In this document: positions 696-31,035 of the stretch, one piece after another
How the letters are laid out: the number at the start of each line of letters is the position of its first letter
Numbering within the stretch: position 1 is the stretch's first letter
Source of the DNA: Leucoraja erinacea
Taxonomy: Eukaryota
Length of the DNA: 64,000 bases
NCBI RefSeq assembly: GCF_028641065.1
Contig: NC_073379.1
Span: 82,708,001 to 82,772,000 of the forward strand
Reading direction: 5' to 3'
Position numbers and translations under genes: made by a program
The notes under the pieces: model-generated
The model's database searches: none
Seen by the model: only the letters and a program-made list of their open reading frames with translations
Told to the model about the DNA's origin: nothing

Positions 696-1699
696 ATCTA
701 AACTTCCTCATTTCACAATTTCTGACATTCTTATCTTAGGTTGACAGGTCTTTCTTTGTTCAATGCCATCTTAAAGACAACACTACTAATAATACAACAG
801 TCTGTTGTCATTGATAGTGAGTTTGCAGTCCACAACAGTTTAAACCTACTTATGTGAAAAATTCAAATAGGTTGCTGTCACCAAAGTAACATTTGATTTC
901 AATCGGTCTATGAATATAATAGAACAATATTCATACAACAGAAAAAACGGTTGTAACAAACTCTCATTGAGTATACCTAGGCAATCATACCAGCCAAAAC
1001 TACCACTGACTGAACATAATTAAAAAAACAAGCCACCCTCAATATAACGCAGTGCAAGATTATGTTCCATGAAAATGAATGCTCTGCCACATCAATACAG
1101 TCACATCATGATTAATAGAAACACAGGCAAAGGCAATGATTTCATACTCCAACCCATGACACTCCTGAAAGATCCAGTATATTTTCTGAAGCGACCTCTG
1201 CACTAATTAGCAAAATATGGAGCAGTTATGAAGCGGAATTCAATTAACAACCACTATTTGAAATACATTGCCAGTGAGTCAATATGGGTGGTTCCTGGCA
1301 GATTACTCAAGACTCCTGATATGGAGGGGATGGATGATTCATTCATTGTAACAATCAGTTTACTGCACCTAGTCTTCACGGTGAATTTATCACCTTCCCA
1401 CTCAGACAGACCACATCACACTACAATGTTGCGTTGTGTCGTTTCCACAAGAGTGCCAGCGATTCACACCGATCCGTGCCGGCTCCTGGATAGACTCTAA
1501 ATGTCAGTCCACCAGCAGGCAGTCCGCTTGGTCCACCCAGTAAACCATGGATGTCGACCAACTAAGGGCTCTCCGGTCCGTGAGATTAACAACCCGAAGC
1601 AAACATTCGCCGGCATGAAGCCAGCTCTAATCTTTTTCATTTTAAAAATTAAGGTTTATTTACAGTTAAGTTAGATATCCTAAACAAAAACTCTCCAAA

Positions 1700-2157
1700 C
1701 TGTTGTATCTGCGTTCACCGAAGCCCGCACTCACCGGCCGTCGCCAACCCCCGGCTTCGTGAGCCGCCGCACGGCGAGAGCTGAGAAACCACCATCAGGG
1801 GAGGGGCCGGGGCTTCTGTGTGACCAACCGCCCGCCCGCCACACGTGACCAAAGATACTAGCGGAGCCTTTGCACGTGACCAACTACCACACGTGACCCG
1901 CATCACGGCAGGGAGTCACAGGCGGTGGATGAAAGCACTAATCAGGGGCCGGAAAACGGAGGGGGCAGGGCTTCTATGTGATCTACGTCACAGGTGAACG
2001 ACCATTGCACGTCACTAAACCTCACGGCGTGGGCAGGTGGAGCAGTAAATGCACCAATCAGAGGAGGGACCAATCAGAGGAGGGCGGCGGGGGCGGGTTC
2101 TACATCACACGTGACTCGGCATCGTGCAGAACCCCGCCCCCCGCTCCAGCTTGTGAC
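1700..2157. promoter_or_regulatory. CpG-rich promoter-like segment with E-boxes, CCAAT boxes and GC boxes
   Basis: CACGTG at 1842, 1873, 1890, 2108; CCAATCAG at about 2054 and 2070; GGGGCGGG/CCCCGCCCC near 2090 and 2132; high CpG density. Confidence 0.5.
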
Positions 2158-2181
2158 CAAGGAGCTCCTCTAGGACCTTTG
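2158..2181. mobile_element. 24-bp DNA-transposon footprint (TIR remnants) with 8-bp TSD CTTGTGAC
   Basis: CTTGTGAC(2150-2157)-caaggagctcctctaggacctttg-CTTGTGAC(2182-2189); degenerate version of the CAAAGATCCTATAG TIR. Confidence 0.7.
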
Positions 2182-2709
2182 CTTGTGACGGCATTTGCCC
2201 CTCCTCCCCGCGTGCGAGGAGTTGCCGTTGGTCCAGCTCCCCGCGCGCGTTCTAACCTGAACAAGGGCGTCACCCGCTGCTTCTCTCCACAGATGCTGCC
2301 CGCGAGTCCCGCTGGGTTACTCCAGCTTTGTGGGTCTATCCGCTCTGCCCCCCCCAACATCCTTGTTATAAACTCCGCGCTACTCTCAATCCCCGCGATG
2401 TAAACTCCGCGCTACCCATCGCCGGACTCCAGTTGGAAGACTGTCTTGCCTATTTGAGTTGGAAGATTTCTGGACTATTTGAGAGATGGGCAAGAACAGT
2501 CTTCGAACTCAAATTGGGGTCGAGACCCTTGTTCAGGTTAGAACGCGAGCGGGGAGCTGGACCAACGGCAACTACTCGCATACGGGGAGGAGGGACAAAG
2601 GCCGTCACAAGCAAAGAAGGAACTGCAGATGCTGGAAAAATCGAAGGTAGACAAAAATGCTGGAGAAACTCAGCGGGTGCAGCAGCATCTATGGAGCGAT
2701 GGAATAGAT

Positions 2710-2737
2710 GACGTTTCGGGTCGAGACCCTTCTTCAG
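2710..2737 (-). ncRNA. Minimal hammerhead ribozyme motif at Penelope end
   Basis: Minus strand CUGAAGA-A-GGGU(CUCG)ACCC-GAAA-CGUC; matches the minimal HHR type known from Penelope-like elements; helix I is weak. Confidence 0.6.
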
Positions 2738-3198
2738 ACTGGTGAGGGGGAGGGGGCAGGAAGAAGAAAGGAAGAGGTGGGGACAGTGGGCTGTGGGAGA
2801 ACTGGGAGGGGAAGGAGGGAGAAAGCAAGGATTACCTGAAATGGGAGGTCAATGAATGTTCATACCGCTGGGGTTTAAACTATCCAATTGTAATATGAGG
2901 TGCTGCTCCTCCAATTTGCGGTGGGACTCACTCTGGCCATGGAGGAGGCCCAGGACAGAAAGGTCAAATTCGGAATGGGAGATAGATTTGAAGTGTTGGG
3001 CCACCGGGAGATCAGGTTGGTTAGAGCAAACTGAGCGGAGTTTGGTTAGAGCAAACTGAGCGGAGGTGTTGGGCGAAGCCATCGCCAAGCCTACACTTGG
3101 TCTCATCGATGTAGAGCAGCTGACATCTAGAACAGCGGATGCAATGGATGAGGTTGAAGGAGGTGCCTCACCTATAAAGACTGTTTAGGTCCTTGGAT

Positions 3199-4053
3199 TA
3201 GCAATGTTACAAAATTTTGAGATTTAAAAAATCAAGTCTGCAATTTATCCCATCAGATAAAGCATAACAATAAGTTTAATTTGACACCAAATTCACTTTC
3301 ATATCTCAAGTATTAAAAAAGTTATGACCATTTTCATACTCGGAAATTAGCATCTTGTTCCCTATTGATTTTCAATGGGCATTACAAAAAAACTGTGATC
3401 TTAGATAGTCAAAAGCACATTTCTTAAGGAAAGATTAACATTTTTAAATAGCCTAAGTGTCCAAAGATTATTCACAAATAATTCACAATATAACATGATT
3501 TTTATATCTAATTTACATTAATTTATAGGCCAAATGGAAGGAATTTAGTGTTCAATTGCTGTAAATAAATGCCCATTTAAATCGGTTTTCTAGTGGGTTC
3601 ATGTGGAACGCGCAGGTTTAGAATGTTGACAGCGCGCTGGATTAGTGCCCTCAAATGCCGAGAAAAATACTGCGGGATATAAAAAGCCCAAAATGAGCTA
3701 CTCGCTATAGAAAATTATAATTATAGGGTTATATACATCCCCATTTAACTAAAAATAAGGTACCCCTTTAATTGTGGACTTTATAAAACCCAGGGGCTGC
3801 AACATCGGGAATGAACAATCTTCCTGCATCTAGCCTTTCCAACCCCTTATATCTACTCTTCGAGGCCTCTATAAAATCCCCCGGGTCTTGCAGCGATTCT
3901 CCGTTAATGATTTACTAGGCTGAACATCTGCGATTGGAACAGCCTAGTAAAAATCGGGTTTTAAACCCGCCCCCTCCAAACAGCTCCAAAATCACACACA
4001 AGGGGAGGGGCAGATGCTCAGCCACGATTCAGGTACGTTTTGTAACATACCTA
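3199..4053. mobile_element. Non-autonomous TIR DNA transposon, TAG...CTA ends, 7-bp TSD CTTGGAT
   Basis: TAGCAATGTTACAAAA / TTTTGTAACATACCTA; CTTGGAT at 3192-3198 and 4054-4060; splits a Penelope sequence. Confidence 0.8.
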
Positions 4054-11527: not shown

Positions 11528-12661
11528 TCTATATAATTAAAAGTCTCATCTTGACCACTTCCTATCTGCGCTGTATATTGATTTTAGAAAAAATGCAACC
11601 ATATATCGCTATGATTTTTGGCCATCTTACTCACACTCCTCCGCTGAGCAGGCCCTGAGGATTTTTCCCAATAGATGAAAAATAAAACATTTCTGAGTGT
11701 TTAAAAAACCTTGAGATCCTCTCGCCTGTCAATCAACACGATGAAGGTAACGCCCCTTCCGGGGGGAGGGGGGGGGGCAGAACTATAAAACCCTGGATGC
11801 CTGGGGTCTGCAAGATCGCGAGTGAGAGGCCACGACTCTCATTATAAGCTGTGAATCAACTGAACTATGAGTCTGTAATGTACTTGCAATAAATGATTGG
11901 TTAACCCTTAATGACAATGCCATGAGTTGTTTGGCCTGTTGCCCTGCCTGTGCTTGAAACTGCAATGCTTTATTAGTTCCGACTGTGTTTGGAAGGAATA
12001 AATGCTTTATTAGGTCCGACTGTGTTTGGTTCAAAGGTCCCGCTCATTTCGTGACTTCCGCCTAGTGGACAGGTCATGCTGATTGCGTAATTTCCGGTGA
12101 GTGCAGAGGTCACGCTGATTGCGGAAGTGTCGCTGACTGCCATGTGAGTATTCAAGAAAGTTTTGCCATATATATGGTGTGTGAGTCAGTGAGTATGTCA
12201 GTGTGTGTGTGTGTGTGTATGTATGAGTTTCTGCGTGTGTGTGTGTGTGAGTGTTTGTGTGTGAGTATGTATGTAAGTGCGNNNNNNNNNNNNNNNNNNN
12301 NNNNNNNNNNNNNNNNNNNNNNNNNNNNNNNNNNNNNNNNNNNNNNNNNNNNNNNNNNNNNNNNNNNNNNNNNNNNNNNNNNNNNNNNNNNNNNNNNNNN
12401 NNNNNNNNNNNNNNNNNNNNNNNNNNNNNNNNNNNNNNNNNNNNNNNNNTGCCAGGCCAAGAATCCATTCGCCCACAATGTCCATATTATCCCTCTGGCA
12501 ACCAGCTGCTTCGGCCCACAACACCATGCTAGCGCTCCAGAAAGCCCTCCCCCTCCCACCACTGGCCAGCAATATTGGAATTGGTGGAGCGGTGCAATAT
12601 TGCGTTGGGGGACCAGCCCTCCTGTGTGAAGCTGGGACCCAACGGGTCCCACTTAGTCTAG
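11528..12661 (+). mobile_element. Non-autonomous Helitron (spans the N gap)
   Basis: a|TCTATATAATTAAAAG start; GGGACCC-AAC-GGGTCCC hairpin at 12634-12650, then CTAG|t. Confidence 0.75.
12282..12449. other. Assembly gap next to a (GT)n microsatellite
   Basis: Run of N. Confidence 0.98.
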
Positions 12662-25545: not shown

Positions 25546-25998
25546 CTCATTCTTTCAGTTTCTGTGTCCTAGATTTCTGCTTTGTATCTGTGCCTTCAAA
25601 CTGCATAAAGAATTCATACATATAATGACATTGAAAAGGGCCATTTGGCCCATCAAGTCCATGCCAGCTGTCATGAGAGCAATCTTATTGGTACTCGTCC
25701 CCTCTTTCTCTATCCCTGCGACTTAATCTCACACAAACCCCTCGTCAACATTTTGGTTCTTTTTGCCATTAACCAATAATTAATCATAAATTACAGGGAT
25801 CAATTGATGCACGTGTATCGTTTATGAAGACTTATGGAGAAAATGCACAAATTTTGCATGGATAATCCTTAAAATCAGAATTGCAAAAGGGTTCTTGGAG
25901 TTGTGAGGTAGCAGCACTGATTGCTGAGCCTCCATATTATTATTCCTTGCTTTCAGTTCCTATATGAATCCGAACTTTTGGTTGAATGTCTTCTGTAC

Positions 25999-28008
25999 CA
26001 AAGCGAAGGATGATGCGTACAAATTAGCCAGAAAAAGCAGCATACCGGAGGACTGGGAGAAATTCAGAGACCAGCAGAGGAGGACAAAGGGCTTAATTAT
26101 GAAAGGAAAAATAGATTATGAAAGAAAACTGGCAGGGAACATAAAAACTGACTGTAAAAGTTTTTATAGATATGTGAAAAGAAAGAGATTAGTTAAAACA
26201 AATGTAGGTCCCTTGCGGTCAGAAACAGGTGAGTTGATCATGGGGAACAAGGATATGGTGGACCAATTGAATAACTACTTTGGTTCCGTCTTCACTAAGG
26301 AAGACATAAATAATTTGCCGGAAATAGCAGGGGACCGCGGGTCAAAGGAGTTGGAGGAATTGAGTGAAATCCAGGTTAGCCGGGAAGTGGTGTTGGGTAA
26401 ATTGAATGGATTAAAGGCCGATAAATCCCCAGGGCCAGATAGGCTGCATCCCAGAGTACTTAAGGAAGTAGCTCCAGAAATAGTGGATGCATTAGTAATA
26501 ATCTTTCAAAACTCTTTAGATTCTGGAGTAGTTCCTGAGGATTGGCGGGTAGCAAACGTAACCCCACTTTTTAAGAAGGGAGGGAGAGAGAAAATGGGGA
26601 ATTACAGACCAGTTAGTCTAACATCGGTAGTGGGGAAACTGCTAGAGTCAGTTATTAAAGATGGGATAGCAGCACATTTGGAAAGTGGTGAAATCATTGG
26701 ACAAAGTCAGCATGGATTTATGAAAGGTAAATCATGTCTGACGAATCTTATAGAATTTTTCGAGGATGTAACTAGTAGCGTGGATTGGGGAGAACCAGTG
26801 GATGTGGTGTATCTGGACTTCCAGAAGGCTTTCGACAAGGTCCCACATAAGAGATTAGTATGCAAACTTAAAGCACACGGCATTGGGGGTTCAGTATTGA
26901 TGTGGATAGAGAACTGGCTGGCAAACAGGAAGCAAAGAGTAGGAGTAAACTGGTCCTTTTCACAATGGCAGGCAGTGACTAGTGGGGTACCACAAGGCTC
27001 AGTGCTAGGACCCCAGCTATTTACAATATATATTAATGATCTGGATGAGGGAATTGAAGGCAATATCTCCAAGTTTGCCGATGACACAAAACTGGGGGGC
27101 AGTGTTAGCTGTGAGGAGGATGCTAGGAGACTGCAAGGTGACTTGGATAGGCTGGGTGAGTGGGCAAATGTTTGGCAGATGCAGTATAATGTGGATAAGT
27201 GTGAGGTTATGCATTTTGGTGGCAAAAACAGGAAAGCAGACTATTATCTAAATGGTGGCCGACTAGGAAAAGGGGAGATGCAGCGAGACCTGGGTGTCAT
27301 GGTACACCAGTCATTGAAAGTAGGCATGCAGGTGCAGCAGGCAGTGAAGAAAGCGAATGGTATGTTAGCTTTCATTGCAAAAGGATTTGAGTATAGGAGC
27401 AGGGAGGTTCTACTGCAGTTGTACAGGGTCTTGGTGAGACCACACCTGGAGTATTGCGTACAGTTTTGGTCTCCAAATCTGAGGAAGGACATTCTTGCCA
27501 TAGAGGGAGTGCAGAGAAGGTTCACCAGACTGATTCCTGGGATGTCAGGACTGTCTTATGAAGAAAGACTGGATAGACTTGGTTTATACTCTCTAGAATT
27601 TAGGAGACTGAGACGGGATCTTATAGAAACTTACAAAATTCTTAAGGGGTTGGACAGGCTAGATGCAGGAAGATTGCTCCCGATGTTGGGGAAGTCCAGG
27701 ACAAGGGGTCACAGCTTAAGGATAAGGGGGAAATCCTTTAAAACTGAGATGAGAAGAACTTTTTTCACACAGAGAGTGGTGAATCTCTGGAACTCTCTGC
27801 CACAGAGGGTAGTCGAGGCCAGTTCATTGGCTATATTTAAGAGGGAGTTAGATGTGGCCCTTGTGGCTAAGGGGATCAGAGGGTATGGAGAGAAGGCAGG
27901 TACGGGATACTGAGTTGGATGATCAGCCATGATCATATTGAATGGCGGTGCAGGCTCGAAGGGCCGAATGCCTACTCCTGCACCTAGTTTCTATGTTTCT
28001 ATGTTTCT
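25999..28008 (+). mobile_element. Young 5'-truncated CR1 with an uninterrupted ORF2 RT
   Basis: 649-aa ORF 25964..27913 with all RT motifs and an intact C-terminus; (TTTCTATG)n tail. Confidence 0.95.
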
Positions 28009-28987: not shown

Positions 28988-31035
28988 GTGGGCAAGCATC
29001 TTGTGCCGGGCCAAGGGGCAGATCTCATCCTGGACTATTACAACCAGTTCAGCATGAGAGTCTCATCAGGGTCAGTAACATCAGAGTGGCACAGACTGGA
29101 GGTTGGGATCATCACAGGCTGTACCATCTCTGTGATCCTTTTTGCCTTGGCGATGAACATGATCGTCAAGTCTGCTGAGCCAGAGTGCCGGGGCCCTCTG
29201 ACCAAGTCAGGAATGCGCCAACCACCAATCAGAGCCTTCATGGACGACCTGACTGTCACCACTGAGTCAGTGCCAGGAGGCAGGTGGATCCTCTAGGGGT
29301 TGGAGAAACTGATTGGATGGGCAAGGATGAGATTTAAGATAGGAAAATCAGGGTCACTGGTGCTGAAGAAGGGCAGAGTAATGGACAGGTTCCGCTTCAG
29401 CATCGAAGGGACACCAATCCCAACTGTCTCCAAAAGGCCAGTGAAGAGTCTAGGCAAGGTGTTTAACAGCAGCCTGAAGGATACAGCATCTGTCCAGGAA
29501 ACCTGTCGGGAGCTGGAGAGCTGGTTGAGAGCGGTGGACTGGTTGGGGCTTCCCGGCAAGTTCCAGGTGTGGATTTACCAACATGGTATCCTGCCAAGGA
29601 TATTCTGGCCACTGCTTGTCTACGAAGTCCCAATATCCATTGTAGAGAGATTGGAGAGGAAAGTCAGCAGCTTCCTCAGGAGGTGGCTGGGACTGCCCAG
29701 GAGCCTTAGCAGCATCGCCCTTTACGGAAACAACACCAAGCTCCAGCTGCCCCTGAAGTCCCTGTAGGAGGAGTTTAAGGTGACTCGGGCCAGAGAGGTG
29801 ATGCTGTACAGGGACTCCAGCGACCCCAAGGTGGCTGTGGCAGGGGCGGAGGTGAAAACTGGGAGGAAGTGGAAGTGGAGTCTCGGATATGCCAGAGTCC
29901 TGGTGGGAGCAGTGACTCGGGGAAGAGCTGGCCTGGGAATTTTCCCATCTCCCCAGTTTGACAAAGCCAAGGGGAAGGAGAGGCGCAGGCTGGTCCAGGA
30001 GGAAGTCAGGGCAGTGGTGGAGAAGGAGAGGTGTGCCAGAGCAGTTGGATTGAGGCAGCAGGGGGCCTGGCCAAGGTGGGAGCAGGCCTTGGACCAAAAA
30101 GTCCCATGGACTGAGCTCTGGCAGGCTGAACCACAGCGCATCAAGTTCCTGGTCCAGGCAGTGTATGATGTCCTGCCCAGCCCATCGAACCTCTTCATCT
30201 GGGGCAAAGCGGAATCTCCAGATTGCCCGCAATGCTCAGGCAAGGGAACGTTGGAACACATCCTGAGCTGCTGCCCAAAGCCTCTTGGGCAGGGCCGGTA
30301 CACATGGCGTCACGACCAGGTTCTTAAACCTATTGCATAAGCCATCAGCACGGGAATCAGCAGCTGCAGACGTGAACGGCCCACCACCCAGATGATCACC
30401 TTCGTGAAGGCTGGAGTGCAGCTGCCAAGAACCACGGCCGCCAGGTGTTAGTCAGGGATCCTGGCAACTGCGCAGGACTGGCAACTTTCCGTAGACCTGG
30501 TGAAACAGCTGAAGTTCCCACAGCACATTGCCACGACCACCCTGAGGCCAGACATCCTCCTGGTCTCAGAGGCGACCAAAAACATTGCCTTGTTGGAACT
30601 GACAGTGCCGTGGGAGGACCGTCTGGAGGAGGCCCACAAGAGGAAGATGACCAAGTACGAAGAGCTGGTCATAGACTGCCATAAGCAGGGCTGGAAGGCA
30701 AGGTGTATGCCCATCGAGGTTGGCTGCAGAGGTTTTGCAGGGCAATCGCTCTATAAAGCCTTGAGTGCACTGGGCGTCAACAGAGTGGCGAGGAGAAGAG
30801 CCATCAAGAACACCACAGAGGCAGCGGAGAAGGCCTCGAGATGGCTCTGGATCAGGAGAGGAGGTCCATGGGGAGGAGCGAATGCCACCTGATCCACAAG
30901 TCGTGTTCTGATCAACCACGGCTGGGTCGCCTGGGTGAGGGTGTCTGATGTTGAAAGACCCGAAACACCCAATGACCCCAGGTTACATCATTGATGATGT
31001 GTTCAGGAGCATCAAAAGATGTATTTTTATCAATC
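28988..31035 (+). mobile_element. 5'-truncated RLE non-LTR retrotransposon, HERO-like, inserted in a SINE
   Basis: One frame 28988-30892 with 4 stops: GIITGCTIS, FMDD, CPQC..EHILSCC (CCHC), RHD, RPDILL..ELTVPWE..KMTKY nuclease. Confidence 0.88.
30924..30997 (+). ncRNA. Candidate permuted hammerhead ribozyme with a kink-turn in the HERO 3' UTR
   Basis: Four complementary helices placed around GUC, GAAA and (U)UGAUGA; AAU-GA/GA k-turn (see findings). Confidence 0.55.

Follow-up and report, generated by a model that had tools for sequence, protein, structure and literature searches.

A split-block hammerhead-type fold near the 3′ end of HERO-like retrotransposons, and its possible part in making a circular RNA template

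Introduction

Hammerhead ribozymes of types I, II and III have their strands in the cyclic order C-G-S and lack pseudoknots. In type SGC (Eckert et al., 2023; PMC10085705) the blocks follow in the order S, G, C, with a short linker between stems I and II and an extra helix that links the other sides of these two stems. SGC ribozymes cleave in vitro at 0.007-0.19 per min, and the same paper assumes that a split between A9 and G10.1 cannot occur. Among retroelements, the model for retrozymes combines cleavage, circularisation and reverse transcription of more than unit length (PMC7761336). In vitro, the Penelope element PAc did not depend on cleavage and used mainly unprocessed RNA as its substrate (PMC11167929).

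Here we describe a hammerhead-type motif near the end of a retrotransposon copy within a 64,000-nt stretch of the Leucoraja erinacea genome (the window). The original prediction from this sequence held its strand order to be undescribed; the order is in fact the cyclic order of the type-SGC hammerheads and so is already known. New relative to the published SGC account (PMC10085705) are the split of block C, with two extra helices in a predicted four-way junction, the k-turn and the autonomous host with a restriction-like endonuclease (RLE). In the literature searched, which lay outside Repbase Reports and the subscription journals, we found no report of the motif in retrotransposons, nor of terminal repeats in HERO elements.

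Results

The host element

The motif belongs to a copy on the forward strand of the window:

28989..31035, +, RLE-type (HERO-like) non-LTR retrotransposon copy, 5′-truncated and decayed, equal to nt 1578-3651 of a unit of about 3650 nt
30452..30892, +, end of the ORF, coding for the C-terminal region with the restriction-like endonuclease, with the stop codon at 30890-92; from protein homology

The copy matches a full unit in the same genome at 92.5% (blastn) and retains pieces of RVT_1 and zf-RVT in an ORF broken by in-frame stops and frame breaks, while a sister copy (L175) has an open frame of 1092 aa. The single ORF carries a reverse transcriptase (RT), then a zinc knuckle and then a PD-(D/E)XK-like endonuclease, whose motif was read from the sequence, and the element thereby falls within the R2 group (RLE) as defined in PMC3636483. 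Homologues of the C-terminal protein number 393, the best of them from fish and amphioxus. One homologue, the Takifugu rubripes RT BAC82598.1, which we take to be HEROFr, is 63% identical. The name HERO is provisional and is given for this likeness to the Takifugu RT. No clear target-site duplications were seen among 14 complete copies, and the lack of target specificity fits HERO elements, which insert non-specifically (PMC4640811, PMC3636483).

Two tandem copies 3.7 kb apart (C5) were considered as an array and rejected, the shared flank indicating a local duplication. The window also contains a run of 168 Ns at 12282-12449, distant from the motif, and, just upstream of the copy at 25928-27913, an RT frame of 661 aa from a different LINE (RVT_1, E 7.7e-34), presumably CR1-like. 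Four bacterial assemblies in the prokaryote genome collection (L141-L144) contain pieces of the animal element, two of them with an intact motif; these pieces are most likely host contamination or misbinning.

Parts of the motif

From the stop codon to the end of the copy, the window reads as follows:

30890..30898, +, helix P0, 5′ strand, including the stop codon; from sister copies, the fold of a family copy and relatives
30899..30923, +, hairpin P0b with a palindromic loop at 30909-14; with P0 it makes a predicted four-way junction at A9/G10.1
30924..30928, +, helix II, 5′ strand (10.1-10.5), GGGUC; from covariation and best partner position
30930..30938, +, helix P5, 5′ strand (CCUGGG, 30930-35), and the non-bulged k-turn strand (3n, 2n, 1n)
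30939..30951, +, block S: helix III 16.x (GGGUGU, 30939-44), predicted cleavage after C30945, helix I 1.x (UGAUGU, 30946-51); from invariant U16.1/G16.2 and covariation
30957..30970, +, block G: helix II 11.x (GACCC, 30957-61), G12-A13-A14-A15.1 (GAAA, 30962-65), helix III 15.x (ACACCC, 30965-70)
30971..30982, +, k-turn 3-nt bulge and tandem GA (within AAUGAC, 30971-76), helix P5 3′ strand (CCCAGG, 30977-82); from the standard k-turn pattern
30985..30997, +, first half of block C: helix I 2.x (ACAUCA, 30985-90) and the CUGAnGA box (UUGAUGA, 30991-97), with C3 changed to U here
30998..31005, +, helix P0, 3′ strand, immediately after A9
31006..31035, +, 3′ tail; insertions end within its last few bases

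Every helix segment named in the original prediction reads as given there, and the order of its strands (10.x, S, G, 2.x-box) does lie outside types I-III. Helix P0 and hairpin P0b put the start of the motif at 30890, and not at 30924 as first proposed; these two elements at the A9/G10.1 break had been missed, as had the regenerated terminal repeat described below. The bases after the box, which had been offered as an alternative partner for helix II, pair with 30890-98 in P0, and no hit has a 5/5 helix II partner there. In the window copy a substitution and an inserted base disrupt P0, which is present with altered sequence across relatives. The window copy itself departs from the hammerhead core at C3, an impairment that had been noticed from the outset. 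Position 30991 is C in 26 of the 30 closest copies of the same genome and the family box is CUGAUGA, so that U3 represents private decay of a dead copy.

Both P0 and P0b form in the computed fold of a family copy. In its minimum-energy fold, obtained by a method that cannot represent pseudoknots, GGGUC pairs with a second GACCC instead and the pseudoknots are absent. In the window this second GACCC gives a rival non-pseudoknotted fold (30924-30929 with 30973-30978), which is not conserved in other families and could be an off state. An Rfam search of the window region returned no hammerhead and no other credible match, the two hits being weak and unrelated.

Conservation and covariation in related elements

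Relatives were picked by their C-terminal protein only, and comprised the best 80 of 189 from metagenome contigs together with four from prokaryote assemblies; viral contigs contained no relatives of this protein. Of the 84 protein-selected loci, 53 contain a match to a descriptor that specifies 10.x, S, G and 2.x-box in this order. When a 5/5 helix II was required as well, there were matches in 43 of the 73 3′ segments that span 150 nt or more, the window among them, compared with 0/73 in each of the three controls (reverse strand, upstream coding DNA and shuffle). Eight of the 31 descriptor-negative loci have less than 100 nt after the protein; among the remaining 23, 13 match a profile at E<1e-6, four do so weakly or partially and six, mostly short or broken, do not. 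The motif is carried by 66 of the 76 protein-selected relatives that have enough 3′ sequence.

The proteins of 36 non-redundant representatives are 26-82% identical. The descriptor required helices I and III and tolerated a single mismatch in the core, which means that the core counts reflect selection in part: across the representatives the core C3 U4 G5 A6 N7 G8 A9, G12 A13 A14 and A15.1-U16.1 is invariant except for C3 and G12 (35/36 each), which matches the core of active hammerheads (PMC3088659). Helix II, position 17 and N7 were left unconstrained. All 54 hits have C, A or U at position 17 (H17) and never G, N7 takes all four bases across hits, and U16.1, G16.2, A15.1 and C15.2 are invariant.

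In a sequence-only MAFFT alignment of 39 loci, which retained three rows misaligned at the 5′ side (L121, L135 and L144), pairing over the 15 base-pair positions of helices I-III reaches 92.8%, compared with 64.0% in shuffles and 29-48% in slid-partner controls. Double changes in these helices number 153, compared with 44.9 in shuffles (0/500 as high), and pairs with a change on both sides show no excess in this alignment (12 compared with 11.2; 180/500). Because kin share changes, we mapped the changes on the protein tree, where for 10 of the 12 variable pairs the two partners change on shared branches (Jaccard index 0.5-1.0), the highest value among 583 unpaired column pairs being 0.42; pairs 10.1-11.1 (Jaccard 0) and 16.4-15.4 (0.33) do not exceed the unpaired pairs. 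Covariation in helices I-III, which had been proposed as a check, is strong in both the 39-locus alignment and the protein-tree mapping, and stems I, II and III adjoin the core as they do in hammerheads. We regard the hammerhead fold as practically certain, and judge from its sequence that the ribozyme is very probably catalytically active.

In two loci the same motif lies 650-770 nt past the ORF in a long 3′ UTR (L129, about 740-810 after the protein match; L140, about 650-715). In L096, L116 and L082 the ribozyme subtype and the protein tree look incongruent, with the palindrome-loop type inside a protein clade of the GACG-loop type and the reverse, possibly through swaps of the 3′ UTR or a weak tree.

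Architecture, k-turn and P0b loop

The order S, G, C and the distance of G12, 12-19 nt after C17, place the motif close to type SGC, in which only a short linker separates stems I and II. P5 joins the other sides of these two stems; it comes after strand 10.x and before strand 2.x in the representatives inspected and would, by analogy, be equivalent to the SGC helix between these stems. The uninterrupted block C (2.x-CUGAnGA-10.x) of type SGC is not found: strand 10.x lies upstream of S at a fixed offset, with the best helix II partner 20-21 nt ahead of C17 for 50 of the 54 hits, and helix II, as predicted for the upstream GGGUC, covaries. The family sequence runs from A9 directly into P0, gapless from P0 into P0b and from P0b directly into G10.1, so that a perfect four-way junction would form where P0, P0b, helix II and the core come together. 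In this model the junction would hold helix II stacked on the core, and the k-turn would fold helix III back to P5, which would act as the SGC stem I-II helix. The split at A9/G10.1 may also slow or stop catalysis.

The standard k-turn, with its consensus known from Kt-7 and U4 snRNA, is defined also by a kinked geometry and by binding of L7Ae-family proteins. This pattern of a 3-nt bulge followed by tandem G.A and A.G pairs between flanking helices is found in the window copy and in 30 of the 36 representatives (near-miss in two, absent in four), the 3b.3n pair being A.G in 9 of the 30. Unlike the standard k-turn it is embedded in a ribozyme stem, and other loops take its place in six of the 36. 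The k-turn proposed in helix III therefore stands for the window copy and these 30 representatives but is not universal, being missing from one clade. The clade of L121, L135, L136 and L144 keeps the whole ribozyme and a compact P0/P0b, with the tandem GA of the k-turn swapped for other pairs and with no palindromic loop.

In 24 of the 36 representatives the P0b loop forms a palindrome of 6 nt, compared with 103 of 862 background windows, and changes within it preserve the palindrome (window 30899-30923; relatives L098, L101, L102, L093, L103 and L087). The loop reads GACG or GAUG in six more representatives, and a palindrome or GACG-type loop is missing in six. Palindromes and GACG tetraloops are dimer-linkage motifs of retroviruses (PMC516450).

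Repeats of the 3′ tail ahead of complete copies

Exact matches to the 5′ start of the unit number 28, and in 27 of these the element's own 3′ end lies directly upstream (26 by BLAST and one by eye). The 8-mer at the junction is identical in 23 of the 28 and has one substitution in four. At their distal 3′ ends copies differ by several bases, with 3 of 60 continuing 6-9 nt into the 5′ start. This combination of a fixed junction, variable distal 3′ ends and run-on argues for a continuous template from which the junction is copied, and for internal priming; the priming site would lie within the last few bases of the 3′ tail, 90 nt past the predicted cut. Self-insertion was rejected as the source of the upstream repeat, as ordinary truncated copies lack the repeat and the junction is fixed.

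Within a copy, the upstream and downstream repeats have non-majority bases in common, 23 in all, compared with 6.8 expected and a maximum of 22 in 10,000 permutations (p about 1e-4; 16 copies, from 28 loci examined and 17 with both repeats, L235 having been dropped as a duplicate of L234). In these independent copies the shared variants fall on both sides of the cut site and include private ones. This suggests that both repeats derive from one template region, as in LTRs; gene conversion between nearby repeats could be partly the source of the shared variants.

The 24 independent upstream repeats, a set that excludes L219, L220 and L221 (shared flanks) and L212, are 0-391 nt long with a mean of 160 nt. 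Thirteen extend beyond the cut site, 11 contain a whole second ribozyme and none ends within 5 nt of the cut site. The stop rate after the junction is about 5.7-fold that in the body of the unit, or 3.8 if L212 is counted. The arrangement in L212/L239 consists of about 1.9 kb of the 3′ part, then the junction, 267 nt of 5′ UTR and unrelated DNA, and would reflect priming further round a circle or a later deletion. The head-to-tail arrangement also occurs in 11 of 67 metagenome loci, some of them distant, a count that discounts L140 (a chance 18-nt match); collapsed assembly can favour such wraps yet needs the junction in the DNA.

A proposed circular template and its alternatives

A circle made by the ribozyme would explain why a piece of the element's own tail stands ahead of nearly every complete copy. 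From cutting onward we infer the steps of the cycle, starting from the observed fold, covariation, own-tail repeat, fixed junction, shared variants and short repeat length. The hammerhead in the 3′ UTR would cleave after C30945, letting the element RNA close into a circle, and a read-through RNA from a copy with two ribozymes would likely be cut twice. The cut halves would find each other again by pairing in P0, helix II, P5 and helix III, after which they would be ligated. The element protein would prime at the tail, cross the joint and complete the circle, which would be copied by the element's RT for slightly more than one round; soon afterwards the RT would stall, on its own cDNA or on degraded template, and so regenerate the repeat. 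The palindromic or GACG-type P0b loop (30 of 36 representatives) might pair two ribozymes for strand exchange, a step that is speculation and for which one clade lacks the loop. The proposed cycle matches the retrozyme model of PMC7761336. From the sequences of the copies we favour, with some reserve, the circle as the main template for reverse transcription.

The predicted cut sits 90 nt before the 3′ end and therefore cannot make that end, as the original prediction anticipated in seeking another role for the motif. The template might instead be uncut multimeric or partly tandem linear transcripts, primed internally as proposed for PAc, with cleavage a side or regulatory activity such as a timer or quality control. 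All copies span the site intact, a fixed junction is likewise expected of such a template, and the PAc precedent (PMC11167929) keeps this explanation alive. Against it, there is no complete dimer in the 28 loci, and it gives no reason for the rise in stop rate right after one unit. With a fixed 5′ end near -391, about 65% of repeats would be expected at the far end, yet lengths of at least 375 nt are found in 2 of 24; repeats would moreover shrink over generations and their concordance would be lost. We consider an uncut linear template unlikely.

The repeat, concordance and length data would also be accounted for if the ribozyme were active and the cut unit-length RNA were held by about 25 base pairs as a nicked, unligated circle, with the RT jumping across the nick. 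RT jumps of the R2 type usually add or lose bases, leaving extra or missing ones. No indel is found at the scissile bond in 57 of 59 distinct copies, and the other two lack 10 nt, a deletion which lies between two UGA repeats and may be aligned to the cut site. This deletion could be taken as a scar of such jumps, but a deletion hot spot at the cut was rejected, since the pattern has two exact matches genome-wide compared with 506 for a control 21-mer (it missed one sampled copy). We place a nicked circle next, as an unlikely reading too, and retain the sealed circle as the preferred template.

An active ribozyme in the upstream repeat might merely set the 5′ end of a linear RNA, HDV-like as in R2, with the distal ribozyme blocked by protein. 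Setting the 5′ end is a known ribozyme role in R2 and RTE elements (PMC7761336), and 11 of the 24 repeats are shorter than 90 nt. However, no copy starts at the cut, with 0 of 24 repeats 85-95 nt long and 13 longer. A hot spot of 5′ truncation at the cut was likewise rejected: it appeared in 0 of 30 copies chosen by a 21-mer, in 0 of 24 repeats and in 0 matches to a pattern starting at U1.1, which by our estimate detects roughly a quarter of such copies and whose control 21-mer gives the 506 matches genome-wide mentioned above. Such a role would neither regenerate the repeat nor explain the shared variants, and we regard it as very unlikely.

In four RNA runs of a related organism reads fall on either strand, show neither an accumulation of ends nor a dip at the site, and offer no useful joints or strand bias; these poly(A) and single-cell libraries are dominated by dead copies and blind to a seamless circle, and the reads look like read-through of dead copies. 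Loose ends in the RNA reads at L008:1614 and 1716 reveal a second subfamily in the related organism, in which the two P0 strands have changed together.

Discussion

Least probable of the explanations is that the fold is a non-catalytic platform for protein binding or dimerisation, with hammerhead-like bases kept for structure and any circles arising otherwise: the palindromic loop (24 of 36 representatives) points to contact between RNAs and the 3′ UTRs of non-LTR elements bind their own protein, as is established for R2, but exclusion of G at position 17 with N7 free is the catalytic consensus (PMC3088659), held here across proteins 26-82% identical.

Returning to the sealed circle, we raise tentatively, at somewhat less than even confidence, the wider proposal that a whole clade of autonomous, protein-coding LINE-type elements may replicate through a ribozyme-made circular mRNA, using a split-block hammerhead with a four-way junction and a k-turn brace, and a self-complementary loop that unites the terminal ribozymes for cross-wise joining. 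If this is true, animal genomes contain, in hundreds of copies, a ribozyme whose permutation is not circular, with many natural variants for structure work, and the published assumption of an uninterruptible CUGAnGA block is broken. An autonomous non-LTR retrotransposon would have gained terminal repeats resembling LTRs and a circle of RNA as template, which would connect LINEs with Penelope-like elements and retrozymes, and the role of hammerheads in autonomous retroelements would become directly testable. RLE retrotransposons are under development for gene insertion, and a circle-templated, internally primed member would be of practical interest.

The motif shares with type SGC (HRIMA-1 and variants; PMC10085705) the cyclic order S-G-C, the short linker, an extra helix (P5 here), the full core and two pseudoknots. 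It differs in that block C is split at A9/G10.1, its ends lying within the added helix P0 with hairpin P0b, in that the extra helix joins stem III on both strands via the k-turn, and in its host, an animal retrotransposon as opposed to the hairpin-ribozyme contigs of metatranscriptomes. A word search finds neither kink nor k-turn in the main text of that paper, no kink in its supplement, and retrotransposon in its references only.

Among retroelements, retrozymes (PMC7761336) resemble the present elements in the hammerhead repeats that flank the unit and in the proposed circle model, whereas they are short, non-coding and non-autonomous and carry type I or III hammerheads. The unit of about 3.65 kb described here encodes its own RT and endonuclease and so is not a retrozyme. 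The self-cleaving RNAs at the 5′ end of R2 and RTE elements (HDV-like and twister; PMC7761336) likewise sit in non-LTR retrotransposons, in our case as a predicted activity; theirs set the 5′ end, whereas the present motif sits 90 nt ahead of the 3′ end and its predicted cut does not coincide with the start of copies. Penelope-like elements, with their pLTR (PMC11167929), are similarly autonomous, with a partial-tandem terminal repeat containing a hammerhead and internal initiation by the RT, but have a GIY-YIG endonuclease and minimal type I ribozymes, in contrast to the RLE and full permuted core of the elements described here.
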